Shown: positions 1 to 29,017, counted from the first letter of the stretch. The stretch is DNA of 64,000 nt from Patescibacteria group bacterium (GCA_041742135.1 JBGSJG010000001.1:3151-67150), one strand, 5' to 3'. Notes: generated by a model from the sequence alone, not told the origin. Numbers and translations are program-made.

Positions 1-92
1 AATATGTGATTATTTAAGTTTGAACACAATTATTCCAAGTAATAACAATATATCCTCTGGAATTCTCTATGAATTAGCAAAATCTGTAAAAA

Positions 93-905
93 ATGGATAG
101 AAAAATTATTGTAATTACCGGCGTAAGTTCAGGAATTGGAATGGCTTTTGTAAAAAAGGCTCTTAATTCTGGTGAATTTACTGTGATTGGATTAGGTAGA
201 AAAGACAATAAAGAGGTTAACGATCCAAATTATTTTTTCTATAAAGTTGATTTATTAGATGAGAGAACAATTAAGGTCGCTGTGGACAAAGTAATAAAGA
301 AATTTAAAAGGGTTAATGTTCTGATTAACAACGCTGGCTTTGCATATAGAAGCACATTCGAGGATCTGTCTTCTAAAGAAATGAGGGAACAATTTGAAGT
401 AAACCTTTTTGGCCCAGCAGTATTGGTTAATCTTATATTGTCTATTATGAGAAAACAGAATACAGGACATATTATAAATGTTAGCTCTGTTGCCTCAAGT
501 GTGAATACTCCAACTTTAGGATATTATGCTGCCACAAAAGTTGCATTAGATAAGCTAAGTGAGGTTCTAAGACAGGAAGTTAAAGCTTTTGGCATATCTG
601 TGAGTCTTCTAATCCCTGGTGCTGTTAAAACTAACTTTGGGAAGAACATTAAATTACCAAAAAACTATAAAAAGTCATCTTATAATAATTTATATTCCGA
701 ATGGGAAAATAGATTCCGTAATTTTTTCAATATAAGAAATACATCTGATGACGTTGCAGAAGGAATACTCTCCCTTATTAATAAACCGCAGAATATTAAA
801 TATATAAATAATCGTGATTGGGTTATGTGCACTCTGGAAAAATATCTACCAAGACAACTATTTCATTATTTATTTTTAAATTATTTTTACAGAAATGAAG
901 GCTAA
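93..905 (+). CDS. short-chain dehydrogenase/reductase (SDR) family oxidoreductase
   Basis: Rossmann motif ITGVSSGIGMA near N-terminus, NNAG motif, catalytic YAATK (YxxxK) in translation. Confidence 0.8.
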   Translation: MDRKIIVITGVSSGIGMAFVKKALNSGEFTVIGLGRKDNKEVNDPNYFFYKVDLLDERTIKVAVDKVIKKFKRVNVLINNAGFAYRSTFEDLSSKEMREQFEVNLFGPAVLVNLILSIMRKQNTGHIINVSSVASSVNTPTLGYYAATKVALDKLSEVLRQEVKAFGISVSLLIPGAVKTNFGKNIKLPKNYKKSSYNNLYSEWENRFRNFFNIRNTSDDVAEGILSLINKPQNIKYINNRDWVMCTLEKYLPRQLFHYLFLNYFYRNEG

Positions 906-1470
906 AAAATTTGGGTTTTTCTTTACAGTTAAATATATCGACAAAAACATCGAGGCCTATCGAGAAGTGTTAAAAGCTACAGATAAGCTTGGTGCTCAAA
1001 TGTATAATTCAAAACTTATTGAAGACTATCCAAAGTCAGTAAGCAAATTAAAAAACGATGGTAAATCTTTGGTTGATGGTACACAAAGGCTACTGCGTTC
1101 TGTAGATTTCGTAATTTCCTTTTTCAGCGACAAATCACGCATTGTCTTTTTGCAAACAATAATGGCGCTAGAGAACAAGACGCCAGCATTGTGTTTAGTC
1201 CATGAAAGTGCGTATAACAACTTTCCAGAAACTCTGCTTTCTTACGGCAAAGACTATGTAAAAGTTAGGAAATATAGTTCGACAAATCAGCTTCAGGAAA
1301 TTGTTACTGAATATATTGAAGATCTTGAACCCCCCAAACGAAGATTCAATGTTGTACTAAAAACAAAGACTTTAAAGCAACTTGAACAGCTAACCCGTGA
1401 GCTTGACATGACTAAGGCAGAACTATTAAGACGACTGATAGATAAAGAATACAGGAGGATGTTTGATTGA
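895..1470 (+). CDS. hypothetical protein; N-terminal nucleoside 2-deoxyribosyltransferase-like (Rossmann-like) region, C-terminal ribbon-helix-helix-like tail
   Basis: Pattern VDFVISFF..., ALENKTPALCLVHES resembles NDT/Rcl-like nucleoside-binding fold; C-terminal KTLKQLEQLTRELDMTKAELLRRLI is RHH-like; 11-nt overlap with upstream SDR gene. Confidence 0.35.
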   Translation: MKAKKFGFFFTVKYIDKNIEAYREVLKATDKLGAQMYNSKLIEDYPKSVSKLKNDGKSLVDGTQRLLRSVDFVISFFSDKSRIVFLQTIMALENKTPALCLVHESAYNNFPETLLSYGKDYVKVRKYSSTNQLQEIVTEYIEDLEPPKRRFNVVLKTKTLKQLEQLTRELDMTKAELLRRLIDKEYRRMFD

Positions 1471-1979
1471 TGAAAAAAAATGATGGTCAAAACCAAGTTC
1501 AGTTAGTTAAGGACTACGTCAGTAAGTGTCATAAAAAAGGTAAAACTGTTCTTATTGTCAAAGGTGTATTTGATCTTATCCACCCTGATCATATACAAAC
1601 ACTTGAGCGATTAAGCAAACTTGCCGATGAACTCATCGTCTTACTAATCCCTGATTGGGCTGCGTCACTCATAAAGCCTGGTAGACCTATCTTGCCAGAA
1701 TCTGCCCGACAAAAGGTTGTAAGTAACTTAAGACCTGTAAAAAAGTGTTTTATTGATTATGATTCACGAGATAGCAAAACGAATAAGTACTCTAAAGATA
1801 AAGATATCGAGCTGTTGAAACAAATTTCACCTGATATGTGGGCTTTAAGTGAAAACAACTTTTCCAAATTTGAAAAATATGATTTAGGTAAAATTGAGCT
1901 CATTAAGTATGAGGAAGGAGTGAATTATTCCACAACCAAAATTATTAGTAAGATTTTAGAAAAATATGCAAAAGCTTAA
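1467..1979 (+). CDS. cytidylyltransferase-like nucleotidyltransferase (RfaE domain II / glycerol-3-phosphate cytidylyltransferase family)
   Basis: HxGH motif in GVFDLIHPDH, downstream ESARQKVVSNLRPVKKC matching ERxxxLxxLxxVDxV pattern of CTP_transf_like family; 4-nt overlap with upstream gene. Confidence 0.6.
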   Translation: MMKKNDGQNQVQLVKDYVSKCHKKGKTVLIVKGVFDLIHPDHIQTLERLSKLADELIVLLIPDWAASLIKPGRPILPESARQKVVSNLRPVKKCFIDYDSRDSKTNKYSKDKDIELLKQISPDMWALSENNFSKFEKYDLGKIELIKYEEGVNYSTTKIISKILEKYAKA

Positions 1980-2817
1980 GAATTCCTTAATTTCCATTAT
2001 TATTCCTACTCACAACAGGGATTATATTTTGTGGAAAGCCATTCAAAGTATTCAGCAGCAAACTTACTCAAACTGGGAGTTGATAATAGTAGATGACAGA
2101 TCTACTGATGCAACCTACAAAATGATGCGTGAGTTCAAGCAAGACAAACGTATAAAATATATTCTTAATGAGTATAAACACAGTCCAGCCGGTGCCCGTA
2201 GATTTGGACAGAAAAATGCAAAAGGTGATCTGATTGCATACCTTGATAGCGATAACAGTGCTTCTAAATTGTGGTTACAAGAAATAGTCAATTTGTTTGA
2301 AAGCGATAGCAGTGCAGTTTTTGCGTATACCGCATTAAATTTTAAGGTTGATTATGTTGATAAGAATGAAAATATAGTAACACTGATTTCAGAAGTGAGA
2401 TTTGCGAACCCTCCTACAGTAGCCATGTTATGGTCTCATGAGTTTGAGGGAGATCCGAATGGTTTTGTTCACCGGTCTGATGTAGACAAAGCAATTGTCT
2501 GGGATGAAAAACTGGATTTGTATGAAGATTATGATTTTTCACTTCAACTTGCCAAGAAATACCCCAAGGGTATGCGATACATAAATCAAGCATTGGTGAA
2601 TTATGTCAGGAGATATGGTGAAGCAGGTATTTGCAACGATGCTACTTATAAATCTCTGTTGAAAAACCTTAAATACCTTAACAGAAAACACAGTAACCTC
2701 CCTCAATGGAACAAAAGTGACTGGCACAAAGAGGAAATAAGAAAGTTCAAAGAATTAGCTGACCAAGGACTAAAACCTATAGATAGGATATTGGCTAAGT
2801 ATGGAAACAAAAATTAA
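1966..2817 (+). CDS. family 2 glycosyltransferase
   Basis: Canonical GT2 N-terminus ISIIIPTHNRDYILWKAIQSIQQQTYSNWELIIVDDRSTD. Confidence 0.8.
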   Translation: MQKLKNSLISIIIPTHNRDYILWKAIQSIQQQTYSNWELIIVDDRSTDATYKMMREFKQDKRIKYILNEYKHSPAGARRFGQKNAKGDLIAYLDSDNSASKLWLQEIVNLFESDSSAVFAYTALNFKVDYVDKNENIVTLISEVRFANPPTVAMLWSHEFEGDPNGFVHRSDVDKAIVWDEKLDLYEDYDFSLQLAKKYPKGMRYINQALVNYVRRYGEAGICNDATYKSLLKNLKYLNRKHSNLPQWNKSDWHKEEIRKFKELADQGLKPIDRILAKYGNKN

Positions 2818-3682
2818 AAAGGCACTTCTCTATAATCCCAGCATTGGAATTGACGTCAAAAATATTACAGTCACTTCTCTACTTGGAGGAAAAGAATCCA
2901 GTATCTATAAAGTCACGAATCAAAATGACAAATGTGTTGTTGTAAAAATTCCAAAAACTGATTGGCAAAAGAGAGAGATCCATGTTTTTCGAGATTATTT
3001 AAGTAAACTTGATATCAGTACTCCAAGATTTTTAGGTGAGTACAATAACGAAGTTTTGATTATAGAGTTCTTAGAGGATTGCAAAACTTTAAACAAGCTG
3101 TCTTTGAGTGAACTAAAGCTTCTGAGAGAGTGGATTATTAATAAACATAGTAAGTCGTGCAAATTATTCACAAATGAATCAAGGAGTTTATTAAAACATG
3201 CTGAATGGATGGTGAATCATCCTATCAAGCAAATCTTAAGTAATAAAAGTATAGAATCTGATGTTAAAGGGAAGTTGTTAGAGTTGCAACCCAATTTACT
3301 TAAGGCATTAGACAAAATTGATCTGCCAATGGTGCTCGATCACTCTGATCTGGAAATCCAGAACTTACTTTTTGACACTAAGAAAGAGGATGTTTGTGTT
3401 TTAGATTGGGCAAATGCAATTAAGTCACCAGGTTTTTATGATATTGCACAATTTAGAAAATTAGCAAGACAATATGTTTCAAATGATGCCGATAGTTTAG
3501 TGTCCGAGCTAATGAAAGAAGTCGGACTCGCAGATAATAATGATCTATTGGAGACATTTGCACTTATAAAAGAAATCAATCTATTAAGTTATTATTTAAA
3601 AGAAAGAGGTGTAGAAAAAGATAATAAAAGTGAAATTGACTATGCGCGTAATATAATTACAGAATATGAAGAACAAAATTAA
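2801..3682 (+). CDS. phosphotransferase enzyme family (APH/choline-kinase fold) small-molecule kinase
   Basis: Brenner motif region VLDHSDLEIQNLLFD and downstream VLDWANA (D of DFG-like) typical of aminoglycoside-phosphotransferase fold kinases. Confidence 0.6.
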   Translation: METKIKKALLYNPSIGIDVKNITVTSLLGGKESSIYKVTNQNDKCVVVKIPKTDWQKREIHVFRDYLSKLDISTPRFLGEYNNEVLIIEFLEDCKTLNKLSLSELKLLREWIINKHSKSCKLFTNESRSLLKHAEWMVNHPIKQILSNKSIESDVKGKLLELQPNLLKALDKIDLPMVLDHSDLEIQNLLFDTKKEDVCVLDWANAIKSPGFYDIAQFRKLARQYVSNDADSLVSELMKEVGLADNNDLLETFALIKEINLLSYYLKERGVEKDNKSEIDYARNIITEYEEQN

Positions 3683-4121
3683 AGTTAGACTACGACTAAT
3701 AATTATCAAGGAAGAAAAGTTGTTGGCATATTATGATTCGATGGATGATTATTATTTCTACATTGGCGGTAAGCTTGAGTTTGGAGAAACCATTGAAGAT
3801 GGATGGAAAAGAGAAATTCAAGAAGAATTGGGCGACGATGTTGAATTCAAATTCAAGAAGATCTTATACATTAGAGATTTTATCCTCCCAGAGAAAAATG
3901 AACACAGCCTTGAGCTATTTATTTTAGGAGACATTAACAAGTTTATGGAGATAGATGAAAGACCAGATCCAGAATATGATGGCAAAAAGTGGCCAAAATG
4001 GTTGAATCTTAATAATTTGCCAGACAACCTCTACCCTAAGCCCTTAACTAAAAAGATCGTACAGGATTATAAAAATGGATTTCCAAACAGCGGAGAGTAT
4101 GTTGGCAGAATGGATAGTTAA
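3666..4121 (+). CDS. NUDIX hydrolase
   Basis: Nudix box GGKLEFGETIEDGWKREIQEELG (GX5EX7REUXEEXGU). Confidence 0.75.
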   Translation: MKNKIKVRLRLIIIKEEKLLAYYDSMDDYYFYIGGKLEFGETIEDGWKREIQEELGDDVEFKFKKILYIRDFILPEKNEHSLELFILGDINKFMEIDERPDPEYDGKKWPKWLNLNNLPDNLYPKPLTKKIVQDYKNGFPNSGEYVGRMDS

Positions 4122-4125
4122 GTAT

Positions 4126-5061
4126 CTATAAAGAAGCGAGTGTATTAACCACAGAGTTTAAAATAAGCTTGTCTCTGTTTAACTTTCCATTAGTAAAGTG
4201 TTGATAAGGGTCTTTTGTTTTTATTCCAAACTTCTTCTGAACTAACACTCCTAAGTCTGGGTATTCAGATGGAACTAAATCAGTCAGTGCTTTAGGTATT
4301 TCCAGATCAGTATCAATTGTAATTGACCTTTCCTGCTTCTCATTTTCTATTACACAAACGCTAAGACCAAAAGTGTTGTGTTTTTCATGCAAGATCGCAT
4401 TCCCGCTTTCAATAGAGACCAAAAACTTTGCTTTCTTATTTTTTATTTTCTTCTTCAAGTCTTCTAACCTGTTTATCGCACCTTGGTATGTTTCCTCGAT
4501 TGAATAAGGCTGCTCTGATATACCAGAGTCGGTTTTTACACCTACTACATTGCATCTATGTCCAAATTCTCGCAGCGCAAGAGAAGTGGCTGAAGTCTTT
4601 ATTATATTCTCAGAGCTAATATATACATTTGGCAAGCTTTTGTAGTAATCTGTGATTGCGTCAATTTTATTGTTTATTACAATTGGTTGCATAGCATTTA
4701 TTTCAGAATCGTAGCTAATTTCAGGAGCTGGGTTGAGCAAAAATATATCTCTGTTTAGTGTGAAGGCAAATCCCATCTCCATTAAACTATTTCCTCCAAT
4801 GTAGTTTTTAATTTCATTCTTATCGTAATTGAGAACCAAAATCCCTTCACTTTGTTTTATAAAATCATAATGTTTGCGGATGTAGTTATTTTCAACCTTC
4901 CTTTTGACAGCTTCTTTTGAAGATCCAGCCTCTTTATATCCTTGTAGTTCATTTGCACTTCCAGGCACATACACATTGAAGCCTTTTTCGGTAAGTCTAT
5001 CCTTCCACTCAAGCATCTCTTTGTGGAATTTCATGCTTCCACAGATTGTTATATTTATCAT
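4126..5061 (-). CDS. fusion protein: N-terminal nucleoside 2-deoxyribosyltransferase-like domain + C-terminal YjjX-type inosine/xanthosine triphosphatase-like domain
   Basis: N-term ICGSMKF...GILVLNY...GGNSLMEMGFAFTLNRDIFLL (NDT/DUF4406-like); C-term GISEQPYSIEETYQGAINR resembles YjjX GVPEQPFGSEETRxGAxNR. ORF-track start 5157 trimmed to internal Met (MINITICG) to avoid overlap with divergent CYTH gene. Confidence 0.45.
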   Translation of the reverse strand: MINITICGSMKFHKEMLEWKDRLTEKGFNVYVPGSANELQGYKEAGSSKEAVKRKVENNYIRKHYDFIKQSEGILVLNYDKNEIKNYIGGNSLMEMGFAFTLNRDIFLLNPAPEISYDSEINAMQPIVINNKIDAITDYYKSLPNVYISSENIIKTSATSLALREFGHRCNVVGVKTDSGISEQPYSIEETYQGAINRLEDLKKKIKNKKAKFLVSIESGNAILHEKHNTFGLSVCVIENEKQERSITIDTDLEIPKALTDLVPSEYPDLGVLVQKKFGIKTKDPYQHFTNGKLNRDKLILNSVVNTLASL

Positions 5062-5112
5062 CTCAAATATTCTAACATAGGCCGGGGGTTGCAGGGTGAT
5101 ATAATCAGATTT

Positions 5113-5691
5113 ATGTACACAGAATTTGAGGCAACTTTTACAAAAATTAATAAGCAAGAAATAAGAGAAAAGCTGAAAGCGATTGGCGCCAAACTAGAGC
5201 GGAAAGAATTTCTTCAAAAGAGAGTTGTCTTTAACCTTCCAAATGGTCATGAAATTGATGGTGGCTGGCTACGAGTTCGAGATGAGGGAGATAAAATTAC
5301 CATGAGTTTAAAGGTTGTTAAAGAAGGCAAAATAGAGGATCAAAAAGAAATCCAGCTTAATATAGATAGTTTTGATAATGCTGTATCACTTTTAGAAACA
5401 ATAGGTTGCGAAAACAAAGCATATCAAGAGACTAAGCGCGAGCTTTGGAAAATCGACGATATAGAAGTAACTATTGATGAATGGCCTTTCTTGGAACCAT
5501 TTGTGGAAATTGAGGGAAAGTCAGAGGCAGAAGTAAAATCTGTTTCTGAAAAACTGGATTTTGATTATTCACTAGCAAAGTTTTGTGCAGTGGATACGCT
5601 CTATGCAGAAAAATATGGTATTACAGAGGATAGAATAAACAATAACACTCCTAAAATTTTGTTTGGAGGGGCAAATCCTTTTACTGATTAA
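5113..5691 (+). CDS. CYTH-domain protein (class IV adenylate cyclase / triphosphatase fold)
   Basis: N-terminal EFEATFTKINKQEIREKL (ExExK-type CYTH motif) and overall 190-aa size; ORF-track start 5023 trimmed to Met at 5113. Confidence 0.55.
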   Translation: MYTEFEATFTKINKQEIREKLKAIGAKLERKEFLQKRVVFNLPNGHEIDGGWLRVRDEGDKITMSLKVVKEGKIEDQKEIQLNIDSFDNAVSLLETIGCENKAYQETKRELWKIDDIEVTIDEWPFLEPFVEIEGKSEAEVKSVSEKLDFDYSLAKFCAVDTLYAEKYGITEDRINNNTPKILFGGANPFTD

Positions 5692-6250
5692 GATACTCAG
5701 CCAATTTCTCCCAATAGCTTTCTACTTGTGCCCAATATTTAACCATGTCTTCTCTTGAAATTTCTGACTCCACTTTTCCATTATATCCATCTGGAATAAA
5801 CAATTCATTAATAGGTGTGTTTCCTTCTTTGTCTGTTTTTACTGCTTTTTTAGATATGATTCCTGTAACTTGGCTTGGGAAAGTGAGAGGTTCTTTGTTT
5901 GGTTCACAATATGCTAAACAACCTTTAATAGTTACACTTCTATCTGTTTTGCCTTCCATTAGTTTCAAGATGTCTTCAGAAGTGAGCCATTGGTTAATAT
6001 ATTTGATAAAAGGTCCTGGGAATCCATTTAGTGCATTGATGTACCAACCTGCATCAGTAAGGGCAACAGGTTTGCCTAATTTTTCAGCTGCAAATTTGGC
6101 AGAGTAGGAAGCAATTTTTTCTACATCAGTTGATTGAATTTCAGGAGTTTCAATTTTTTGTTGAATTAACTCAACATTAGAATTCTCAAGTACTTTCTGA
6201 GCAATTTCAAACTTATATTTATTTCCTGTTACAAAGATTATTTGTTTCAT
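5681..6250 (-). CDS. Ham1/RdgB-family non-canonical purine NTP pyrophosphatase (ITPase)
   Basis: IIFVTGNKYKFEIAQ N-terminus and TDAGWYINALNGFPGPFIKY core typical of Ham1/ITPA. Confidence 0.7.
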   Translation of the reverse strand: MKQIIFVTGNKYKFEIAQKVLENSNVELIQQKIETPEIQSTDVEKIASYSAKFAAEKLGKPVALTDAGWYINALNGFPGPFIKYINQWLTSEDILKLMEGKTDRSVTIKGCLAYCEPNKEPLTFPSQVTGIISKKAVKTDKEGNTPINELFIPDGYNGKVESEISREDMVKYWAQVESYWEKLAEYLNQ

Positions 6251-6253
6251 AGT

Positions 6254-6553
6254 TTACTTATTAGATTTTACTATTTTTTTAGTTACTTCACCCGCAAATA
6301 ATCTATATGCTGGACGTTTTTCTTTTGGGTACAGATAATATACTCCTAGTGTATCTTTACAATTCGGACAAATTAAATTCTTGTCAGATTGTTTTTCAAA
6401 ATCGACTATTCTGTCTAAATAAATTCGTTTTAAAATGCCTGGGCCATCTTTTTGATAATAAAAAAGATGAGTAGTACAAGACTCACAAGAAATATCATAA
6501 ACTTTTGAAGTTCCTCCTCTGGTTCTCCTAAATTTATCTTTTTTAATTTTCAT
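6254..6553 (-). CDS. small zinc-ribbon protein (CxxC...CxxC), hypothetical
   Basis: CESC...CPNC pair in 99-aa basic protein. Confidence 0.4.
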   Translation of the reverse strand: MKIKKDKFRRTRGGTSKVYDISCESCTTHLFYYQKDGPGILKRIYLDRIVDFEKQSDKNLICPNCKDTLGVYYLYPKEKRPAYRLFAGEVTKKIVKSNK

Positions 6554-6893
6554 TTATTTCAACCTTTATTCCCAGAACTCCATATTTTTCTTCATCTTCT
6601 TCAGAATAGTATTTTCTCATATCGTCGGACATTTTTTCTGGAGTATCGTCTTCGCTCCAACCAGCGTCGTTGCCTTTTATTTTTGAGAACATCTCAACAA
6701 AGTTTTTGAACTGATTTAAGTCAACGATTTTAGTATGAATACGTTCGTTTGTTTCTGTATTTGTAAAAACAATATTGTCTTCAACTTTCAACTTCTGTCG
6801 TTTTTCATCAAACAACCTGATTTCTATTGTTTTTTTGCCAGATTTAATTTTGTTAAATGGCTCTGGTCGCAAGCTCATTTGATGAGTGTTCAT
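6543..6893 (-). CDS. ASCH (PUA-like) domain protein
   Basis: MSLRPEPFNKIKSGKKTIEIR N-terminal pattern typical of ASCH domain. Confidence 0.5.
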   Translation of the reverse strand: MNTHQMSLRPEPFNKIKSGKKTIEIRLFDEKRQKLKVEDNIVFTNTETNERIHTKIVDLNQFKNFVEMFSKIKGNDAGWSEDDTPEKMSDDMRKYYSEEDEEKYGVLGIKVEINEN

Positions 6894-7552
6894 AGTGAGG
6901 AAATTATATCATCCAGTAAGTTTAATGTGGCTGAAGTTCGAGTTGACAAATCACCAGCTAAGGCATCTTTCCAAAGGCTTTCAAAACTTTCTGGTAGTTC
7001 CTCTAAATCATTAATTCTTCTAAAAGCAGTCGTACTTGGTGGTAATGGTTTATTGTTTGATAAATACAAGCCTCTAACTATTTGCCATAAAACATTTGAA
7101 ACATTGAAACCGATGGCTAAGTCATCGTCGTTTTGTTGAGCCGATTCGATTTTTATCTTTGCACTCTTTAGCCACTTTTTAACTCCAGTTATTTCTTTCG
7201 GATCTGGCTTGTAATTATCATAAATATCTTTAGCTTCATTAATTGCTTTTTCGGCAAAGTTGTCTTTATCAAATATCACTTTTGCATCTAGCCACTGGTA
7301 AACGTTCATTGGGTCGTCATGCATTTTTCGAATAAAACCATCTGACGTGTTTGTTTTGATCTCTACAACTATTCCTTCAATTAATTCTTCTTTAAAAGGT
7401 TGTTTTTCATTTGCAATAAGAAGCAAGTCTAAGTCTGAATTTTCAGATTGTTCATCTCTTGCAACACTACCCGTAACTAACAATGTAAGATTATTTTCAT
7501 TACTTCGATAAGTTGAAGCCAGTCTTTCAATTATCTGTTTGTGCTTAGACAT
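6890..7552 (-). CDS. Pol-beta superfamily nucleotidyltransferase (kanamycin/ANT(4')-like fold)
   Basis: LVTGSVARDEQSENSDLDLLLIANE = GS...D.D nucleotidyltransferase motif; 220 aa with helical C-terminal half. Confidence 0.6.
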   Translation of the reverse strand: MSKHKQIIERLASTYRSNENNLTLLVTGSVARDEQSENSDLDLLLIANEKQPFKEELIEGIVVEIKTNTSDGFIRKMHDDPMNVYQWLDAKVIFDKDNFAEKAINEAKDIYDNYKPDPKEITGVKKWLKSAKIKIESAQQNDDDLAIGFNVSNVLWQIVRGLYLSNNKPLPPSTTAFRRINDLEELPESFESLWKDALAGDLSTRTSATLNLLDDIISSL

Positions 7553-7554
7553 AG

Positions 7555-8523
7555 TTGAATTATATAATAAACCTCATGAAAATAATTCTAGGATCAAATA
7601 ACCATGACAAAGTTGAAATAATTAAGAAAGCATTAGAGCAACTACATTTGGAAATTGAGGTTGAAGGCGTGAAAGTTGCTTCTGAAATAACAGACCAACC
7701 TCTGGATAAAGAAACTACTTTAAAAGGTTCTCAAAACAGAGCTAGAAACGCTAGAAAGGCAAAACCAAATGCAGAATTCTACTTTGGCTTAGAAGGTGGG
7801 CTTCACGATTACGGAGAAGGATATCATCTTGTAACATTTGCTACTTTAATCGACAAAAGTGGTAATGAATATACTGGTGAAGGTGTAGAAATCCATCTCC
7901 CAGAAAAAGTTTCAGCGGAAGTTAAAAATGGTGGTTGGTTTGGAGAAGTAATTAGAATTTATGCAAAAGAGTATGACATTGATGAGAACTTAATTACAAG
8001 AGAAACTCCATTTATTGAAGCGATAGAAAGAGCATATGCAAATTACTTAAAAGCCAACGATAAACTTGCAGTCAGAAAAAAATCTATAGCTTTTATTTTT
8101 AATGAGGATAAAGAATTCTTACTAGTCCAACTTCAAACATACGGTCCAGACCATTGGAACATGCCTGGTGGTGGAATAGATGAAGGAGAAGATGCACAAA
8201 CTGCAATGAAAAGAGAATTGAAAGAAGAACTTGGCACAGACAAATTTGAAGTAATTGAAGAATCCAAGATTAAGAATCAATATGATTGGCCAGATTTTGT
8301 AATTGCGGACAGAATTGTTAGGAAAAATGAATATTTTAGCGGGCAGGAACAAACACAATTTATTGTTAAATTTACTGGCGTTAAAGATGAGATTAAAATT
8401 CAAGAAGAAGAAATAAAACAACACAAGTGGGTGAAATATGACGATCTAGAACAATACTTAATATTTCCTGACCAATGGGATAATTTCAAAGTTGTGGTTG
8501 AAACTTCATCATTTGAGCTATGA
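7555..8523 (+). CDS. fusion protein: N-terminal YjjX-type ITPase/XTPase (DUF84) + C-terminal NUDIX hydrolase
   Basis: N-term ILGSNNHDKVEI...ITDQPLDKETTLKGSQNRARNARK matches YjjX NPxK...GAxNRxxNA pattern; C-term Nudix box GGGIDEGEDAQTAMKRELKEELG. Confidence 0.6.
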   Translation: MNYIINLMKIILGSNNHDKVEIIKKALEQLHLEIEVEGVKVASEITDQPLDKETTLKGSQNRARNARKAKPNAEFYFGLEGGLHDYGEGYHLVTFATLIDKSGNEYTGEGVEIHLPEKVSAEVKNGGWFGEVIRIYAKEYDIDENLITRETPFIEAIERAYANYLKANDKLAVRKKSIAFIFNEDKEFLLVQLQTYGPDHWNMPGGGIDEGEDAQTAMKRELKEELGTDKFEVIEESKIKNQYDWPDFVIADRIVRKNEYFSGQEQTQFIVKFTGVKDEIKIQEEEIKQHKWVKYDDLEQYLIFPDQWDNFKVVVETSSFEL

Positions 8524-9014
8524 AATATCCCGTATCAACATTCTCATGGCAAGGCACAGATGTTACTAATACTTGGATAAAGACCACTGAGGTTGAAAAT
8601 TATTCTCCTATCACCCAAGCATACGCAGTTATTTTTAATGATAAAAATGAGATATTAATAGGTAGAGAGAAAGGTAAAGGCAAATGGTGTTTGCCAGGTG
8701 GTCATCCTGAAGATGGTGAGAGTTTAGTTGAAACTTTGTGTCGAGAAGTAGATGAGGAAGTTGATGTTGAAATTGATAATGTTAAGCCACTGGGAGTAAT
8801 TAAAGTAGAATTTGAAGATGCACCAAATAAACCTATTTATCAATCAAGATTTATAGCTAAACTGAAAAAACTGCTTCCTCAGACTCCTGATCCAGCAAAT
8901 AACAATATTTGGGAAAGAAAATTTGTTCCGGCAAAAGACATCAATGAATATGTTAAATGGGGTGAAACGGGGAAAGCAATGTTTAAAGATGCTATTGAAT
9001 TATCCGGACACTAA
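8520..9014 (+). CDS. NUDIX hydrolase
   Basis: Nudix box LPGGHPEDGESLVETLCREVDEEVDV. Confidence 0.75.
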   Translation: MKYPVSTFSWQGTDVTNTWIKTTEVENYSPITQAYAVIFNDKNEILIGREKGKGKWCLPGGHPEDGESLVETLCREVDEEVDVEIDNVKPLGVIKVEFEDAPNKPIYQSRFIAKLKKLLPQTPDPANNNIWERKFVPAKDINEYVKWGETGKAMFKDAIELSGH

Positions 9015-9107
9015 GGCAGCGGTGAGAATGTTTTGAAAAAAAACAACAAAATAGCCAACCTTCATGGGCTATTCTAGAGACCACGGTCTTGCCGCTAGAA
9101 TCTCAGC

Positions 9108-9176
9108 TGCGGGACAGGGACTCGAACCCCGATACCATCCTCCAGAGGGATGTGTCCTACCATTAGACGATCCCGC
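9108..9176 (-). tRNA. tRNA-Gln (anticodon CUG)
   Basis: Reverse complement GCGGGAT-CG-TCTAATGGTAGGA-CACATCC-CTCTGGA-GGATG...GGTTCGAGTCCCTGTCCCGCA folds as cloverleaf; anticodon loop CTCTGGA gives CUG; no encoded CCA. Confidence 0.85.
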
Positions 9177-9230
9177 AATATTAGATCGGCTAACTGGCAA
9201 GCTGTGCTTACCATTAGACGATCCCGCAAT
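9158..9230. repeat. direct repeat: ~22-bp copy of the tRNA-Gln 5' end (taccattagacgatcccgcaat) duplicated 51 bp away
   Basis: Identical 22-mer at 9158-9179 (inside tRNA) and 9209-9230; second copy does not continue into a tRNA. Confidence 0.7.
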
Positions 9231-9326
9231 GTGAGGCAATTTTATCACAATCGCAACCCCATTCAGGAATCACCTGGCAAAATAGAGCTTCAAATAGCCT
9301 AGCTTGCGGCATTCTCACCCCTATCG

Positions 9327-9533
9327 CTAAGATGCTTTTAGCAATTCAGGTTTATCTCCCTGACCATCAGCTGGTTGAGTTCTCTCGACCAGTGGCTGTT
9401 CAACCTGCACTCGACTAGGATACGAAGGCTCTCTCCTTCCACGGTAATTACTCATCCCAGGCAAGGTTATGTGCATAGTGTAAAGCAGCCTTTCGCTCAC
9501 GTCTTGAAAATACGACCCTCTTTCAACACTCAT
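9327..9533 (-). CDS. hypothetical 68-aa sORF within GC-rich non-coding stretch (may be non-coding)
   Basis: ATG preceded by AAAGGGGGTGAG Shine-Dalgarno-like run immediately after a terminator; no recognisable family. Confidence 0.2.
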   Translation of the reverse strand: MSVERGSYFQDVSERLLYTMHITLPGMSNYRGRREPSYPSRVQVEQPLVERTQPADGQGDKPELLKAS

Positions 9534-9553
9534 TCATCTCACCCCCTTTCCAT

Positions 9554-9577
9554 AAAAAAAGAGCCCTTTTGGGGCTC
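9554..9577 (-). terminator. rho-independent terminator (minus strand) downstream of DUF4258 gene
   Basis: Minus-strand GAGCCCCAAAAGGGCTC hairpin followed by TTTTTTT (plus strand shows aaaaaaa-gagccc-tttt-ggggctc). Confidence 0.6.
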
Positions 9578-9670
9578 AATACCTTATGTCTTATAAACCT
9601 ACAATCAGGTGGTGAAATTACAATCTTGAACCAGTTTATACCTGAAGGCGCCAAACAGCTGTAACGGCCG

Positions 9671-9913
9671 TTACAAGGCTCGGTTCCAGACCGAGAGGAT
9701 CAACCACTGTTTTTTTTCGTTTTGCTTAGCCACTACTTCAATCAATTGACTACCAATTTTTTTCTTATACACCCACGCTCCTTTGTTGGCTGCAAAATTT
9801 GATTCATCTGGAGAATACCATGTAGCCCAAGCATCACTTTGAGAAACACCCCGCTCAACTAAACGCTTAAGCGCGTGGTTTGTCCAAATCGTCCCTTTGA
9901 AGTCTTGCATCAA
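9671..9913 (-). CDS. DUF4258-family toxin-like small protein
   Basis: HALKRLVERGVSQSDA... and C-terminal ILSVWNR resemble DUF4258 (H-A-x-x-R-M-x-E-R-G-I ... V-V-T-V-Y-W) architecture. Confidence 0.5.
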   Translation of the reverse strand: MMQDFKGTIWTNHALKRLVERGVSQSDAWATWYSPDESNFAANKGAWVYKKKIGSQLIEVVAKQNEKKQWLILSVWNRAL

Positions 9914-10223
9914 ACATTTCCAAAATTTCTCGGCCCACTAAATAAATTTCATGCTTAATAAATTCCTCAACGTCATCACTCACACGCTCGCGGATGAAAT
10001 CCAAAATTGTTTCATCGTGAGCACGCGTTGCTACGTGATCAATAAATTCCTTGTGGTGCTCGCCCGGCAAGCGCTCCAAGATACAACCCACAACCCTGTG
10101 ATGGACAATTTCGTCAATTAGGCGATAAATTTCACCACGAGCCTCTTGGTCTTTAACGTTCTTTTTGATGAGTGCCTCAAGCTCGGACAAGTCCAGAAGA
10201 TGATCATAAAAGAGCTTAGACAT
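9867..10223 (-). CDS. hypothetical acidic protein, 47-nt overlap with downstream DUF4258 gene (possible antitoxin/partner)
   Basis: ORF only; overlaps toxin-like gene in different frame. Confidence 0.35.
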   Translation of the reverse strand: MSKLFYDHLLDLSELEALIKKNVKDQEARGEIYRLIDEIVHHRVVGCILERLPGEHHKEFIDHVATRAHDETILDFIRERVSDDVEEFIKHEIYLVGREILEMFDARLQRDDLDKPRA

Positions 10224-10243
10224 GATACGTACTTATTGAATCA

Positions 10244-11179
10244 TTATACATCGTTATAGCTAACTGGGCCAAGAGGTATTTTGTTCTCGGCATCATCCAC
10301 AAAAAACAAAATCACTGGTCCTTTTTTATACCTTGGGCCTCCCAGATAATCCATAACCTCCGGGCTTCCACCGAAATGTTTGCCAGTCCATGCTGCAGGA
10401 CCTGAATCAGCAATCGCAGCTACTACAGCCTTGCCATTATCGGTATTTACAATAATAACCTTTCGATATTTATACCAATCACGTAGATAACGAAAGCGAG
10501 TGTTCCAATCTGGAAGATAAAGTGTTTGAACGACCGCGTACCAACGCTCAGTTTCTTCCAAGTCAGGAGTTAGGGCCTCTTGGCTGGGTGCAAAATACCC
10601 CCAAGCTCCCAAGCCCGGAGCGATTCCTTCTTTGAGTATCTCCTCTGGGTCTTCCCCACCGTAATCTGTCGTTTCAGGTTTTTGGGCCGCCAACGTATCT
10701 CCAGGGTAACGGCGCAAATGCTGCTCGGCACCTATTCTGCCGTACGTTTGGTTTAAGTGCTCGCCTTCTAAAGTGGCACGTACTGGAATGCCCGTAAGCT
10801 CACTAATTATTTTTTCCAAATATTTTTCTTCAGTTTCGCTTAAAGGCCTAACTTGCTCCGGTAAAATTTTATGTAAAGCTTCTCTCAAAGACACCGCCCG
10901 GCTCACAGGTGGAAGGTTACTTTTGGCTTTTTCAATTACCTCGTGAGGTGGAGGCAAAAGCGCAAGGGACAAGTTTGGCGAAGAAAGCGCTAAACTACCA
11001 GCCAGTGCTCCGGCCGAAATAAGTTTTGTCGAGTGCTCACGGATTTTTGACAAATCAATCCCTTTTGAGATTAAAAACTGATTGGCATCATGGTATTTAT
11101 CCGAAAAATCCTTTTTAGTCTGAAGGTGTTTTAGTTTTAGTTTGTTACGAAGATCTTCGTGATCAAAGACAGGTTTCAT
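10244..11179 (-). CDS. RlpA-like double-psi beta-barrel (DPBB/3D-like) domain protein, probable cell-wall lytic transglycosylase-related
   Basis: C-terminal KVIIVNTDNGKAVVAAIADSGP...GKHFGGSPEVMDYLG resembles RlpA VxVtNlxNGrsvvvRINDRGP...DLSxaA; start moved to MKPVF (11179) to abut gltX stop. Confidence 0.45.
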   Translation of the reverse strand: MKPVFDHEDLRNKLKLKHLQTKKDFSDKYHDANQFLISKGIDLSKIREHSTKLISAGALAGSLALSSPNLSLALLPPPHEVIEKAKSNLPPVSRAVSLREALHKILPEQVRPLSETEEKYLEKIISELTGIPVRATLEGEHLNQTYGRIGAEQHLRRYPGDTLAAQKPETTDYGGEDPEEILKEGIAPGLGAWGYFAPSQEALTPDLEETERWYAVVQTLYLPDWNTRFRYLRDWYKYRKVIIVNTDNGKAVVAAIADSGPAAWTGKHFGGSPEVMDYLGGPRYKKGPVILFFVDDAENKIPLGPVSYNDV

Positions 11180-11180
11180 T

Positions 11181-12629
11181 CTACCTTTTATTGTACACCG
11201 AAAGGGCATCGGTGAGACGCGTAAGCGTCACGTCTTTGCCTAAAATCTCCATTGATTCGTTAATCGGCGGAGTGCTACGGCTTCCGGCAATTGAGCATCG
11301 CAAGTCCATATAAAAATCGCCAGTTTTAAAATTATTCTCGCCAATTAAATTCGTTAGCTGGCTATTTATGGTTTCCAAATTCCAATCGTTAGTTTTCTCC
11401 AAAGCTTCTAAAGCTTTTGTGACATGCTCTTTATACTTATCAGTCAAGTCGAAAATTGGTTCTTTTTGTTTGTAAAAATATTCAAGATATTCTCCCAATT
11501 CAGATAGTTTTTTAACTCTGGTTTTGACCAAAGGCACAATTTTGTGAAGTATTTCATCTGAGATTTCTTTTGAAACAAATGGTCTAGCCGACACGAAAAA
11601 ATCCTCATCTGAAAGCTTTTGGAGATATTGACTATTAAACCAATCAAGCTTGGCAGCATTAAAAGTTGGGTTTGCTTTTTGTACACCGTTTTGGTCAAAC
11701 GCCGCAACGAATTCAGAAAGCGTAAAAAGCTCTTGATTATCCTTCGGAGCCCAGCCTAAAAGCATGAGGTAATTTAATATCGCGGCTGGTAAATAGCCTT
11801 GCGAAGTCCAAGTATTGACCCCAAAAAGAGCAGTCATGTCGCGCTTGCTGAACTTTTTACCAGTTCTTGGGTCAAGAATCACACTGAAGTGGCCAATGTT
11901 TGGGACAGATTCTCCGAGTCCTTCGTAAACATGCAAGTGAATCGGGGTTGAGGAAATCCATTCTTGGCCCCGAAACACATGTGATATTTTCATCGCGACA
12001 TCATCAACCACCACAGCAAGATGGTATGTAGGAAAACCGTCTGACTTAAGAAGGATCATGTCGGGAACTTCTTTGCCAAAAAATTTAACTTTCTTTTTTA
12101 ATATCCAATCTTCGTACTCAAACACACGATCTTCAGGAATTTTTGCACGGACAACATAAGGCTCTCCATTTTTAACCCTTTCCAATGCGGCTTCAGGGCG
12201 CTCGTCTCGAGCTTTGGGCCGGATTTTTAGTTCTTTGAGTTTTTCATCCGAATCATAAGCGGCCTTAATTTCTTCTTTTTCCCTTTGTGGTGCTTCAAAG
12301 TCATAATAAGCATAGCCATTTTCCACGAGCTTGCGAGCTGCCTCTTGGTAAAGCGTGAGCCTTTCCGATTGCCTGTACGGAGCGTATGGACCACCTTTGT
12401 CTGGGCCTTCATCCCAATCAATCCCAAAACTTCTTAGCACCTTAAATATTTCGGCTTCGGTGTCCGCTCTTGAGCGTTTCTGGTCCGTGTCTTCAATACG
12501 AAGCACAAATTGGCCACCATTTTTTTTGGCATATGCATAATTCCACAGTGCTCTAATCACAAAACCCAGGTGAATGCTTTCTGGTGTTCCTGTTGGTGAG
12601 GGTGCAAAACGAGTTCTGACATCTGCCAT
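11181..12629 (-). CDS. gltX: glutamyl-tRNA synthetase
   Basis: RFAPSPTGTPESIHLGF (HIGH-class motif), VLRIEDTDQKRS, KFSKRD (KMSKS). Confidence 0.9.
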   Translation of the reverse strand: MADVRTRFAPSPTGTPESIHLGFVIRALWNYAYAKKNGGQFVLRIEDTDQKRSRADTEAEIFKVLRSFGIDWDEGPDKGGPYAPYRQSERLTLYQEAARKLVENGYAYYDFEAPQREKEEIKAAYDSDEKLKELKIRPKARDERPEAALERVKNGEPYVVRAKIPEDRVFEYEDWILKKKVKFFGKEVPDMILLKSDGFPTYHLAVVVDDVAMKISHVFRGQEWISSTPIHLHVYEGLGESVPNIGHFSVILDPRTGKKFSKRDMTALFGVNTWTSQGYLPAAILNYLMLLGWAPKDNQELFTLSEFVAAFDQNGVQKANPTFNAAKLDWFNSQYLQKLSDEDFFVSARPFVSKEISDEILHKIVPLVKTRVKKLSELGEYLEYFYKQKEPIFDLTDKYKEHVTKALEALEKTNDWNLETINSQLTNLIGENNFKTGDFYMDLRCSIAGSRSTPPINESMEILGKDVTLTRLTDALSVYNKR

Positions 12630-28033: not shown

Positions 28034-29017
28034 TTACGAAGTTTTTTTGTACCAAAACTCATTTAGAAGAACCCGAACAATGATAACTATCGGAACTGAA
28101 AGTATTGCCCCTACGACTCCGGCCATGCGAAAGCCAACCACGATAGAAAGCAAAGTCACAACTGGACTGACGTGAGCGTTTTTCTGCATCACCTTTGGCA
28201 CAATTAAATAATTTTCAAGCTGCTGCACGAGAACATAGAGTGCGGCAACAGATAATCCGGTAAATGGTGAGATGCCCAAACCTACTAAGACTGCGGGGAC
28301 TGAAGCAAAAAATGGCCCAAGGTTTGGGATAACCTCAAGTATTCCAGCCAAAACAGCCAATGGAAGGGCGTACGGAACGCCAATTGCAGAAAGGCCAACG
28401 TAAGTAGTAATGCCGATAATAACCATTAAAATTACTTGAGCACGAGCCCAACCTCCAAGCTCTTTTTCCAATCTAGCAAGCAGGCCATCAAATCTCTCAG
28501 CCTGATCTTCAGAAGCTATGGTTCTCACTTGATCTTTAAATTTCTTTCGAGCCAGAAGAAAATAAAGAGCAAATATAAATACTGCCAATAGCGATACTAT
28601 GTTCGAAAACACCGAAACACCGATTCGGAGAATTTGAGAAGGCAGGCTAGAAAGCTGAGAAGTTAACTGTGTAGTAATTTGATCAACCACCTCGATGGGA
28701 ATATTGAGCTCTGCCATAATTCTAGGGATTGCGTTCGAAAACTTAGCAGTCTGGTCAACGAGTGCCGGTACAAGCGTTGCTACAGCAAAAATCAAAAATA
28801 CTACTAGGATCAAATAAACTATCAAAACCGAAGCAGCTCTGGGTATTTTATATTTTTCAAGTTTTGTGACAATTGGATTTAAAACCGCCATTATAAGAAG
28901 CGCCACAAAAAGTTGGAGGATTATATCCTTGATGTAATACAAAAAGGTAATGAAGAGAATAAACAAAACCGTAAAAACTATAGTTTTGTAGGAAATTTCA
29001 ATTTTGCGTGGCATCAC
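28034..29017 (-). CDS. AI-2E family (PerM/UPF0118) transporter
   Basis: ~8 TM helices, length and hydrophobicity pattern typical of AI-2E family. Confidence 0.55.
   Translation of the reverse strand: MMPRKIEISYKTIVFTVLFILFITFLYYIKDIILQLFVALLIMAVLNPIVTKLEKYKIPRAASVLIVYLILVVFLIFAVATLVPALVDQTAKFSNAIPRIMAELNIPIEVVDQITTQLTSQLSSLPSQILRIGVSVFSNIVSLLAVFIFALYFLLARKKFKDQVRTIASEDQAERFDGLLARLEKELGGWARAQVILMVIIGITTYVGLSAIGVPYALPLAVLAGILEVIPNLGPFFASVPAVLVGLGISPFTGLSVAALYVLVQQLENYLIVPKVMQKNAHVSPVVTLLSIVVGFRMAGVVGAILSVPIVIIVRVLLNEFWYKKTS

Follow-up and report, generated by a model that had tools for sequence, protein, structure and literature searches.

The first 4121 nt of a 64,000-nt stretch of Patescibacteria group bacterium DNA (the window) are best explained as the downstream portion of a single long polycistronic operon. 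On balance, we lean towards the view that this operon encodes a cytoplasmic, TrpD/TrpF-type pathway, autoregulated by a nucleotide-sensing ribbon-helix-helix (RHH) repressor, and its product is probably a ribose-phosphate-derived compound. In what follows, the reaction order, the ligand's identity and the match between the RHH protein and an operator are given as we infer them. The operon is rare, being found in several candidate-phyla-radiation (Patescibacteria) lineages and a few other metagenomic bacteria, and no description of it or of its pathway was found in the searchable literature. The genes of the window concerned are the following.

1-100, plus strand: Ppx/GppA-like (ASKHA) gene, 3' end (truncated at the window edge)
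93-905, plus strand: SDR (adh_short match)
895-1470, plus strand: DNPH1-like/RHH protein (DNPH1/Rcl profile and RHH match)
1467-1979, plus strand: cytidylyltransferase-like enzyme (CTP_transf_like, rfaE_dom_II)
1966-2817, plus strand: GT2 (Glycos_transf_2)
2801-3682, plus strand: APH/choline-kinase-like kinase (APH, Choline_kinase)
3666-4121, plus strand: Nudix hydrolase (PF00293), end of the coupled run

The five genes from the SDR to the kinase had been described, in a sequence-only reading of this DNA, as a block with overlaps of 4-17 nt, and both their positions and their overlaps (in order, 11, 4, 14 and 17 nt) were confirmed. Each start codon is the first ATG, with the next in-frame start at least 16 codons further on; for the cytidylyltransferase, the ATG at 1470 may be an alternative start, which would leave an overlap of 1 nt and an AGGAGG 9 nt upstream. 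The coupled run goes on downstream, where the Nudix gene overlaps the kinase gene by 17 nt. Upstream, a near-identical contig (L001; 1 mismatch to the window in 2442 nt) shows that positions 1-100, which read ...ILYELAKSVKNG* in frame 2, encode the C-terminus of a 315-aa ORF at 1009-1956 of that contig. Positions 1-92, earlier taken for an upstream operator region, are thus coding sequence, the 3' end of the Ppx/GppA-like gene. This gene overlaps the start of the SDR gene by 8 nt (window 1-100 and L001 combined) and shares 14 nt with a PRAI- and RPE-like gene upstream of it in L001. Promoter-like and terminator-like sites in 1-4300 occur at the level of shuffled sequence, which is consistent with a single polycistronic unit. 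The operon lies in a low-GC island (33.7% vs 43.0%) adjacent to a tRNA-Gln and was probably acquired horizontally.

The window and L001 stop short of the PRTase and HAD genes and of the promoter region, which are known from other loci. Six genes form a core that is invariant in ~15 non-redundant loci, drawn from Saccharibacteria, WWE3, Gribaldobacteria and further metagenomic bacteria; in order, they encode the PRTase, a HAD phosphatase, PRAI-RPE, the Ppx-like protein, the SDR and DNPH1-RHH. The core stays collinear down to 26-33% protein identity, in several phyla and in loci of 28-53% GC. Three signature families are equally rare (49, 34 and 46 clusters among 5.8e9 proteins) and fall on the same contigs; a second database-scale count found 31 representatives among 1.84e9. 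A chance grouping of common, unrelated genes might be suspected in so compact a genome, where overlap per se is common (a crude ORF count finds it at 19 of 56 same-strand junctions in the rest of the window). However, the longest overlapping run elsewhere is 3, against 5 in the window and 2 upstream here, and such a run with conservation in other loci is not chance. With order, linkage and a cis-element common to these loci, synteny refutes this explanation, which has next to no probability left.

The SDR and the RHH protein belong to the core, whereas the other three genes form a movable accessory module of CTP-transferase (or an NDK-like protein), GT2 and kinase. Orthologues of the cytidylyltransferase adjoin the GT2-kinase pair in L013, L028, L029 and L033, in the last with the same order as in the window, and the kinase gene always follows that of GT2. 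The pair, with its cytidylyltransferase or NDK-like partner, is missing from the most distant loci (L032, L037 and L038). Given this division, the five genes are largely refuted as a unit. They had been proposed as a self-contained pathway for activating a sugar or nucleoside-like moiety and transferring it, with the NDT-like protein as enzyme or regulator and with a functional link to the nucleotide-hydrolase cluster downstream. The proposal has its attractions: the kinase, nucleotidyltransferase and GT2 make a recognisable activation-and-transfer triad, whose order is kept in L033, and the NDT-like domain is structurally near MilB and BcmB, CMP N-glycosidases of nucleoside-antibiotic pathways. 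Yet the catalytic Glu, Tyr and Asp are gone from that domain, and none of the genes at 4126-9014 was found beside the operon in any other locus examined. As this cluster does not travel with the operon, one system comprising both is without comparative support, the caveats being the Nudix gene that overlaps the kinase gene and the ASCH-type genes that recur near the cluster in other loci. The five-gene pathway is therefore improbable. Profile searches with each ORF showed all five family assignments to be right, and the co-occurrence of the genes marks a true conserved linkage group rather than a generic LPS set; 'nucleoside-antibiotic-like' chemistry is possible for the operon.

The Nudix protein (PF00293, E = 8e-6) has an intact Nudix box (residues 35-56) and, by its distribution, is seemingly a lineage-specific add-on: no Nudix gene was found beside the cluster in other loci, save a 33%-identical one 2 kb from it in L032. 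It also has a weak match to the PADLOC model PDC-S07 (E = 5e-8).

The enzymes of the core suggest a chemistry that starts from PRPP. The PRTase gene product (420-440 aa) joins a novel helical N-domain to a C-terminal type I phosphoribosyltransferase domain with a PRPP motif and the type I PRT fold (AF2 pLDDT 90), the closest structures of which are purine PRTases (HGPRT) and PyrR. The PRAI-RPE gene, upstream of the window (L001/L008), encodes a TrpF-like PRA isomerase fused to a ribulose-phosphate-3-epimerase-like barrel. The TrpF-like domain (Pfam PRAI, E = 1e-14; 1pii, E = 6.6e-6) has the catalytic Cys in a KxCG-type N-terminus, the catalytic Asp of an LLD motif and two phosphate motifs, GGTG and LAGG. 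Variation is absent at D128 and G133-G136 and almost absent at C7, and the LAGG and GFDxQS motifs are conserved as well; a PRA-isomerase-type active site thus appears to be kept. Assignment of the RPE-like domain is weak (Pfam E = 0.002-0.02; PDB E = 0.7), and its HxDxxDGxFV motif is conserved. The product of core gene 4 matches Pfam Ppx-GppA (E = 1e-32) and TIGR03706 (E = 5e-43, below the cutoff of that model); it is a short phosphohydrolase of that type and the most conserved protein of the cluster. Core gene 5 encodes a classical SDR (adh_short, E = 1e-42, 146 bits) with TGVSSGIG at 9-16, NNAG at 79-82, S131 and Y145xxxK149. The RHH protein gene is always directly downstream, even where the two form a separate unit.

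In the TrpD/TrpF-type pathway that we favour, the PRTase would couple PRPP to an amine, the TrpF-like domain would carry out an Amadori rearrangement to 1-amino-1-deoxy-ribulose 5-phosphate, the RPE-like domain would epimerise C3, the SDR would reduce the alpha-amino ketone, and HAD and Ppx would remove phosphate. In the clade of the window, the product might then be tailored by the accessory enzymes: phosphorylation by the choline-kinase-like kinase, activation to an NDP-alcohol or NDP-sugar by the cytidylyltransferase-like enzyme, and glycosylation by GT2. Several findings speak against this scheme. Purine PRTases and PyrR, the nearest PRTase structures, give products incapable of Amadori rearrangement; the Ppx-like protein is left without an explained role despite its conservation; the RPE-like assignment is weak; and the cytidylyltransferase has HxDH for HxGH. 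Further, accessory genes found in other loci (PfkB, guanylate-kinase-like and NDK-like) hint at nucleotide-type rather than alditol-type chemistry.

These accessory genes can be read as parts of a module for nucleotide salvage, analogues or conflict, in which an NMP from the PRTase is raised to an NDP by the guanylate-kinase-like enzyme and to an NTP by the NDK-like one, PfkB acts as a nucleoside kinase, and the repressor senses a nucleotide. Such a module could serve nucleic-acid modification, antimetabolite production or anti-phage defence. The nearness of the PRT domain to HGPRT and PyrR would fit, as would accessory AAA_17 kinases, the frequent neighbours (R-M systems, RhuM, KilA-N and transposases), the NTP pyrophosphatases packed into the island of the window, and distant DNPH1-RHH paralogues beside NDK, Nudix and PRT genes. 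However, the kinases are accessory and not core, the core proteins match no PADLOC defence-system model, and no phage homologues were found. The TrpF catalytic residues that have been kept favour ring-opening (Amadori) chemistry, which is closed to ordinary nucleotides, and we regard the nucleotide module as doubtful.

The accessory enzymes of the window can be placed in families with some precision. The cytidylyltransferase-like protein (PF01467, E = 9e-11, 42.5 bits vs a gathering cutoff of 21; rfaE_dom_II, E = 1e-15) finds 3glv (E = 1.5e-11) as well as ECT, TagD and CCT in the PDB, and its profile matches identify it as a small nucleotidyltransferase of the HldE domain II/TagD/ECT/CCT family. 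The (R)TxGISTT-type C-terminal motif is represented by an invariant S155TTKI. The canonical (H/T)xGH signature, previously reported as 'HxGH', is in fact H39-P-D-H42, with the Asp invariant (HxDH in 5/5 orthologues examined). GT2 (PF00535, E = 4e-32, 112 bits vs 23.3) has the GT-A motifs DDRSTD at 43-48 and D94-S-D96, and is soluble, with no membrane segment; chondroitin synthase, GalT1 and PglI are its closest solved structures. The kinase matches APH (PF01636, E = 3e-7, 30.7 bits vs 23.2) and Choline_kinase (E = 3e-6), and its profile finds the choline kinases 3mes and LicA (4r77). The Brenner motif HxDxxxxN, the Mg-binding Asp and the Lys/Glu pair are all present, K49, E59, H181SDLEIQN188 and D202 being invariant in 9 orthologues.

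Envelope chemistry might be read from these relatives. In a decoration pathway for a glycopolymer of the teichoic-acid kind, an alditol phosphate would arise through the RPE-like domain and the SDR (compare the CDP-ribitol pathway, TarJ/TarI) and be activated by the cytidylyltransferase, while GT2 and the LicA-like kinase decorated a surface polymer. The closeness of the cytidylyltransferase to TagD, ECT, CCT and RfaE-II, of the kinase to LicA, and of GT2 to TuaG, PglI and TagF-type enzymes agrees with this. Nevertheless, the conserved genes of the loci encode no flippase, polyprenyl-phosphate transferase or polymerase, the L032, L037 and L038 variants do without the cytidylyltransferase, GT2 and kinase, and the PRTase, the TrpF-like active site and the Ppx-like protein are not accounted for. 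As membrane segments are absent from all conserved components, teichoic-acid or surface-glycan chemistry, also suggested earlier, is unlikely, and we give the glycopolymer pathway little credence.

Control of the favoured TrpD/TrpF-type operon would fall to core gene 6, which encodes a DNPH1/Rcl-like domain (aa 1-145) followed by an RHH tail (aa ~148-190; AF2 pLDDT 87 for the model). The family profile of the N-terminal domain finds DNPH1 in the PDB (E = 5e-17), and DNPH1, MilB and BcmB are the best Foldseek matches (prob 1.0, target-normalised TM ~0.8), in keeping with the NDT/DNPH1 Rossmann-like fold. In DNPH1, Glu104 is the nucleophile, Tyr24 and Asp80 have catalytic roles, and Ser98 is a ligand of the 5'-phosphate (PMC10483697). 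By hmmalign, these catalytic residues are gone from the window protein and from 13/13 close relatives (Y24 to G7, D80 to T63 and E104 to Q87). Ser98 is kept as an invariant S81, R30 is replaced by an equally invariant K13, and Ser128', from the partner subunit in DNPH1, is a Pro. Since the nucleophile and both helpers are lost and the phosphate pocket is kept, the domain probably binds an N-ribosyl 5'-phosphate, or a similar nucleotide-like ligand, as DNPH1 does, but without cleaving it. The role of pathway enzyme once proposed for the NDT-like domain is therefore unlikely. The tail falls below the Pfam cutoff for RHH_1 (E = 0.0036), and the family profile finds CopG (2cpg, E = 0.002) and NikR (E = 0.014); there is also a match to the PHROG 'transcriptional repressor' (E = 2e-4), and AF2 places a strand, KRRFNVVLK, before helices 157-170 and 174-190, as in the beta-strand/helix/helix RHH motif.

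In other loci, most transcription units of the cluster have a palindrome, TTATACA-N5-TGTATAA, that overlaps their promoter. In 12 of 13 non-redundant loci it precedes the PRTase gene and departs from this sequence by no more than 1 mismatch; L038 has a symmetric variant, and extra copies stand before separate GT2 or SDR-RHH units. No copy was found elsewhere in these loci, away from cluster promoters, and none with at most 1 mismatch within the 64-kb window. The palindrome is a candidate operator of the RHH protein, a putative pairing; against this reading, its 3' half-site doubles as an extended -10 box. The ligand of the DNPH1-like domain may be the PRTase product or a nucleotide, and the domain would then control RHH binding over the -10 box. 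Together with the lost catalytic residues, the palindrome strengthens the earlier idea of a ligand-sensing autoregulator, and the switch of the operon is probably a fusion of a dead nucleotide hydrolase with a DNA-binding tail. The family calls, the linkage and the autoregulator of the sequence-only reading are supported, while its five-gene unit, operator region, enzyme role, hydrolase link and glycan chemistry are not.

More speculatively, there is a slim chance that the core makes a novel PRPP-derived metabolite, that dead-DNPH1 transcription factors are a class sensing N-ribosyl 5'-phosphates, and that the neighbouring NTP pyrophosphatase, Nudix and ASCH enzymes protect or recycle. If so, the metabolite might have antimetabolite or signalling activity and be either an acyclic N-(aminodeoxypentityl) compound or a ring-opened nucleotide analogue; the operon behind it would be one that reduced, host-dependent Patescibacteria swap horizontally.

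Trp and His pathways are, to our knowledge, generally absent from the host lineages. As in TrpD-TrpF or HisG...HisA, a PRPP-dependent transferase is encoded here with a (beta-alpha)8 Amadori isomerase. However, the PRTase is of type I with a novel N-domain (TrpD is type III and HisG type IV), the isomerase is fused to an RPE-like barrel, and the cluster has no IGPS, HisI or SAICAR-synthase-like partner. The terminal SDR reduction and dephosphorylation can be likened to the pentostatin/coformycin logic of PenA PRTase, a His-pathway Amadori step and PenB SDR (PMC12648386 for the roles of PenA and PenB). The kinase and nucleotidyltransferase also recall activation pairs such as LicA/LicC, Kennedy CK/CCT, TagD and the HldE kinase-adenylyltransferase: a choline-kinase-fold kinase and a TagD/ECT/CCT/RfaE-II-like nucleotidyltransferase are encoded here alongside a transferase. 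However, the scores are far below equivalog cutoffs, the motif is HxDH and not HxGH, an NDK-like protein replaces the nucleotidyltransferase in some loci, and the transferase is a soluble GT2 rather than LicD or TagF. DNPH1/Rcl and the CMP N-glycosidases MilB, BlsM and BcmB of the nucleoside 2-deoxyribosyltransferase superfamily have fold, homology and the Ser98 equivalent in common with the sensor domain, but every operon-linked member has Gln, Gly and Thr for Glu104, Tyr24 and Asp80. No solved or described member of that superfamily has an RHH tail, and a literature search found no such combination of sensor and RHH. Joining a DNA-binding module to a metabolite-binding domain is a feature common to this protein and CopG, MetJ, NikR, PurR, PyrR and NrdR. 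CopG, MetJ and NikR are ligand-responsive RHH repressors, and PurR and PyrR of B. subtilis are nucleotide sensors derived from the PRT fold. NrdR senses nucleotides through an ATP-cone, likewise derived from an enzyme fold (PMC12176259). The RHH motif is C-terminal here; NikR, CopG and MetJ have it at the N-terminus or consist of it entirely. Finally, the predicted arrangement, a palindrome over the promoter of the operon that contains the regulator gene, is that of ligand-responsive repressors.

The five plus-strand ORFs that had been read as one coupled module were all found, overlapping in order by 11, 4, 14 and 17 nt, and each family assignment was borne out by profile searches. These ORFs, the Nudix gene behind them and the neighbouring hydrolase cluster are as follows.

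93-905, +: classical SDR (profile search E=1e-42)
895-1470, +: RHH protein of 191 aa, a DNPH1/Rcl-like domain with a C-terminal ribbon-helix-helix tail (searched alone, a weak RHH_1 match only)
1467-1979, +: cytidylyltransferase-like nucleotidyltransferase, CTPt (PF01467 E=9e-11; rfaE domain II E=1e-15)
1966-2817, +: GT2 (profile search E=4e-32)
2801-3682, +: APH/choline-kinase fold kinase (E=3e-7 and 3e-6)
3666-4121: Nudix gene, overlapping the kinase by 17 nt
4126-9014: dense nucleotide-hydrolase cluster, comprising an NDT-like + NTPase_I-T fusion, CYTH, Ham1, a Zn-ribbon protein, ASCH, an NTP_transf_2 nucleotidyltransferase, an NTPase_I-T + Nudix fusion, and Nudix

The catalytic motifs of the SDR, the GT2, the kinase and the downstream Nudix protein are all intact. 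For the CTPt, the sequence-only reading named the right family and the wrong motif: in place of HxGH the protein carries H-P-D-H, and the H-x-D-H form was present in all five orthologues examined. The first ATG was used as the start of every ORF; alternative starts leave the overlaps standing, except at the CTPt, where ATG 1470, with a good AGGAGG upstream, is possible and gives a 1-nt overlap. Elsewhere in the window about one third of same-strand junctions overlap and the longest run is three; at this locus five consecutive overlaps lie in the window, and seven when L001, an independent metagenomic contig, is included. Scans of 1-4300 for promoter-like and terminator-like sites did no better than shuffle level, and an Rfam scan of 1-12000 gave the tRNA as its sole match.

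L001 differs from the window by one mismatch in 2442 nt and reaches 1856 nt further left, ending inside the PRAI/RPE gene; exact-protein look-ups gave only two short Logan contigs. With this extension, window positions 1-100 prove to encode the C-terminal 32 residues of a Ppx/GppA-like protein of 315 aa. Its gene extends 8 nt into the SDR gene and shares 14 nt with the preceding gene, for a PRAI+RPE-like two-barrel protein. The region 1-92, once taken for the upstream region that might hold an operator, is therefore coding sequence. Rather than a five-gene module, the functional unit is a rare operon with, in the window genome, eight genes or more: a six-gene core and accessories. Confidence in the membership of its genes is high.

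The five genes do form a true linkage group. A set of 38 loci was gathered from genome and metagenome collections by exact-protein look-up and degenerate-pattern scanning, and their ORFs were annotated by BLASTP against the window proteins and those of other loci. Dereplication leaves about 15 informative loci from Saccharibacteria MAGs, one Patescibacteria MAG, WWE3, Gribaldobacteria and metagenomic bins at 28-53% GC. Every locus of sufficient length carries a collinear core of a 420-440-aa protein (PRTase), a HAD phosphatase, the PRAI+RPE-like fusion (PRAI-RPE), the Ppx/GppA-like protein, the SDR and the RHH protein. The tightest pair is the SDR followed by the RHH gene, which in the most distant loci (L032, L037 and L038) stands as a separate convergent two-gene unit. 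The GT2-kinase pair, in that order, occurs in one large clade, lying upstream on the same strand, divergently or, as the window shows, behind the RHH gene. Ahead of the pair comes the window-type nucleotidyltransferase in L013, L028, L029 and L033, and an NDK-like protein in L003 and L006. The three most distant loci are without this whole module. Further frequent accessories are PfkB with a guanylate-kinase-like protein, and an ASCH-type small protein. On this comparison the five genes fall into two layers: the SDR and the RHH protein belong to the core, and the other three (CTPt, GT2 and kinase) to an accessory module for tailoring. The conserved synteny rules out both chance adjacency and a generic LPS-core gene set. 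Since none of the cluster's conserved proteins has a membrane segment, a surface-polymer pathway was not kept as the leading model.

Several features vary around this core. The NDK-like proteins (L003 2418-3116, L006 3964-4461, L034 15532-16149) have IKPD and NxxH..DS motifs and match Pfam NDK at E=0.003; those of L003 and L006 adjoin GT2-kinase at the place taken by the CTPt in the window and L033, and the L034 homologue sits downstream of the RHH gene. A small ASCH/PUA-like protein, in two unrelated sequence types, accompanies nearly every complete cluster copy (L003 10821-11276, L006 4521-4964, L008 988-1365, window 6543-6893); the window gene lies 2.4 kb downstream, within the hydrolase cluster. 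L037 (GCA_964484675.1, 3706-11559) is a minimal operon in a 53% GC genome, without GT2, kinase or CTPt and with an AAA_17 kinase. MFS and EamA transporters lie directly downstream of it and may export the core product.

Three signature families, those of the RHH protein, PRTase and PRAI-RPE, are similarly rare and share contigs; their best existing annotations are 'hypothetical protein' or 'phosphoribosylanthranilate isomerase'. The core proteins had no match in PADLOC and only generic ones in PHROGs, and no homologue of the RHH protein was found in 2.9 M viral contigs. The literature searched (PRA isomerase in Patescibacteria, deoxyribosyltransferase + RHH, DNPH1-type sensors) held no description of the operon.

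The operon shares a low-GC island with the hydrolase cluster: window 1-9050 has 33.7% GC, the remainder 43.0%, and the segment ends at the 3' side of a tRNA-Gln(CTG) gene (9107-9177, -). A 27-nt direct repeat over the 5' part of the tRNA (9158-9184 and 9209-9235, 93% identity) and the low-GC border together suggest an integration or rearrangement scar; no integrase was seen within the window. The operon proteins are 70-77% identical to those of MAGs placed in different candidate phyla, and the flanks of other loci hold R-M systems, RhuM, KilA-N and transposases. Horizontal spread of the operon would be the simplest reading. The proposal that operon and hydrolase cluster form one system found no support, as no 4126-9014 gene adjoins the operon in the other BLASTP-annotated loci. 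Within that cluster, ORFs 4126-5157 (-) and 5023-5691 (+) share 135 nt in a head-to-head overlap. ORF 4126-5157 (343 aa, TTG start) looks over-extended by its first ~32 codons, and MINITICGSM... is the more likely N-terminus of its NDT-like domain.

The RHH protein with its conserved candidate operator is the most interesting single element. Its family comprises 49 clusters at 90% identity (among 5.8e9 proteins) and 31 representatives at 50% identity (among 1.84e9 proteins), all of 180-200 aa and the same two-domain layout. The family profile matches solved DNPH1/Rcl structures over residues 1-140 (E=5e-17) and the RHH domains of CopG and NikR over residues 143-187 (E=0.002-0.02). The best structural match of the AF2 model (pLDDT 87) is DNPH1, followed by MilB, BcmB and NDTs. 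In DNPH1, Tyr24, Asp80 and the nucleophile Glu104 are conserved and catalytically important (PMC10483697). When human DNPH1 was aligned to the family HMM, these residues corresponded to Gly7, Thr63 and Gln87 of the window protein, as in 13 of 13 operon-linked relatives, and the phosphate-binding Ser98 was retained as Ser81. As judged from sequence, this pattern is the signature of a domain that would still bind an N-ribosyl 5'-phosphate, its cleavage activity lost. The RHH protein would be a clean and testable example of an enzyme turned sensor, DNPH1 minus three catalytic residues plus an RHH tail. Distant paralogues (L035 1528-2100, L036 1547-2128; 23-28% identity), some of which keep the Glu or Tyr, have NDK, Nudix and a small PRTase gene as neighbours on unrelated contigs, a hint that the whole DNPH1-like/RHH family regulates nucleotide metabolism.

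The intergenic DNA before the PRTase gene is unalignable between loci, apart from a palindrome. A perfect TTATACA-N5-TGTATAA precedes the gene in L003, L006, L008, L013, L016, L028, L029, L033 (as two tandem copies) and L034; L010, L032 and L037 have one mismatch, and L038 has the symmetric variant TATACC/GGTATA. In split clusters most transcription units examined have their own copy, with an extra one before GT2 in L003, one before the SDR-RHH unit in L032, L037 and L038, and one in the divergent CTPt/PRTase spacer of L033. Allowing one mismatch at most, the fetched loci, among them one of 53% GC, hold no further copy. The 3' half-site doubles as an extended -10 box (TGTATAAT), and TTGACT lies directly upstream in several loci. 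Protein binding at this site would therefore block access to the promoter. As the sole conserved DNA-binding protein of the cluster, with a nearly invariant beta-strand K(R/K)RFNV, the RHH protein is proposed as the repressor. It would repress the operon through the palindrome while its DNPH1-like domain senses a ribosyl-5'-phosphate compound, a model held with moderate confidence. Autoregulation by this protein, as first suggested, survives in principle, with a conserved candidate operator at cluster promoters elsewhere, though not at 1-92. The 64 kb window holds no operator copy with at most one mismatch. Its CTPt-GT2-kinase-Nudix genes are joined directly to the downstream side of the RHH gene and would not need a promoter of their own; the operator of this genome should lie upstream of the window. 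A perfectly symmetric variant (TTATACCttcatGGTATAA, 29879-29897), with the half-sites TATACC/GGTATA of the L038 cluster promoters, sits in the gap that separates miaA (29014-29871, -) from a TPR-like ORF (~29906-30582, +). As a generic 2-mismatch match it is at chance level (0.27 expected), although the RHH protein might still bind it as a second target. Such a sensor-repressor would be a new nucleotide-responsive transcription factor family, and the 19 bp candidate operator gives a direct experimental handle on the pathway's intermediate.

Of the core enzymes, the PRTase has a type I PRPP-binding motif, LILDDSITTGRT, with weak Pribosyltran and HPRT matches. In its confident AF2 model (pLDDT 90, pTM 0.91) the C-terminal domain superposes on HGPRT, PyrR and APRT; the helical N-domain of ~230 residues found no match. 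The N-terminal barrel of PRAI-RPE (Pfam PRAI E=1e-14; 1pii E=6.6e-6) retains the TrpF hallmarks, namely the N-terminal Cys (KxCNIKN), the Asp (LxDKSxxGGTG), LAGG and GFDxQS, and the second barrel has an RPE-like VDFFHIDISDGFV motif with weak statistics (E=0.002-0.02). With a PRTase encoded beside a competent TrpF-type isomerase, we infer that the TrpD-to-TrpF logic is reproduced. The PRTase would phosphoribosylate an amine using PRPP, and the TrpF-like barrel would convert the ribosylamine to 1-amino-1-deoxy-ribulose 5-phosphate by Amadori rearrangement. Since this product is a ribulose-5-phosphate analogue, the fused RPE-like domain, which would epimerise C3, makes chemical sense. The SDR would act on the resulting alpha-amino ketone, a natural SDR substrate, and the HAD phosphatase, possibly with the Ppx/GppA-like protein, would remove the phosphate. 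In the window's clade, the choline-kinase-like kinase may then re-phosphorylate the product, the TagD/CCT/RfaE-II-like nucleotidyltransferase activate it as a nucleotide derivative and the soluble GT2 glycosylate it. Confidence in this specific chemistry is low to moderate. A nucleotide analogue is kept alive as the product by the kinase-rich accessory set (PfkB, guanylate-kinase-like, NDK-like, AAA_17).

The operon combines a TrpF-like isomerase/epimerase-like barrel fusion, a novel phosphoribosyltransferase and tailoring enzymes. Because candidate-phyla-radiation (CPR) bacteria are credited with next to no biosynthetic capacity, the conservation and horizontal sharing of such an operon would be a pointer to a specialised metabolite that matters for their life as epibionts. 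Among described pathways, the nearest precedent for the PRTase-Amadori-SDR order is pentostatin/coformycin biosynthesis (PenA, PenB), in which a PRTase is followed by an Amadori step and an SDR (PMC12648386). However, the enzyme families of the operon differ from those of that pathway, whose SAICAR-synthase-like partner is absent from the operon.
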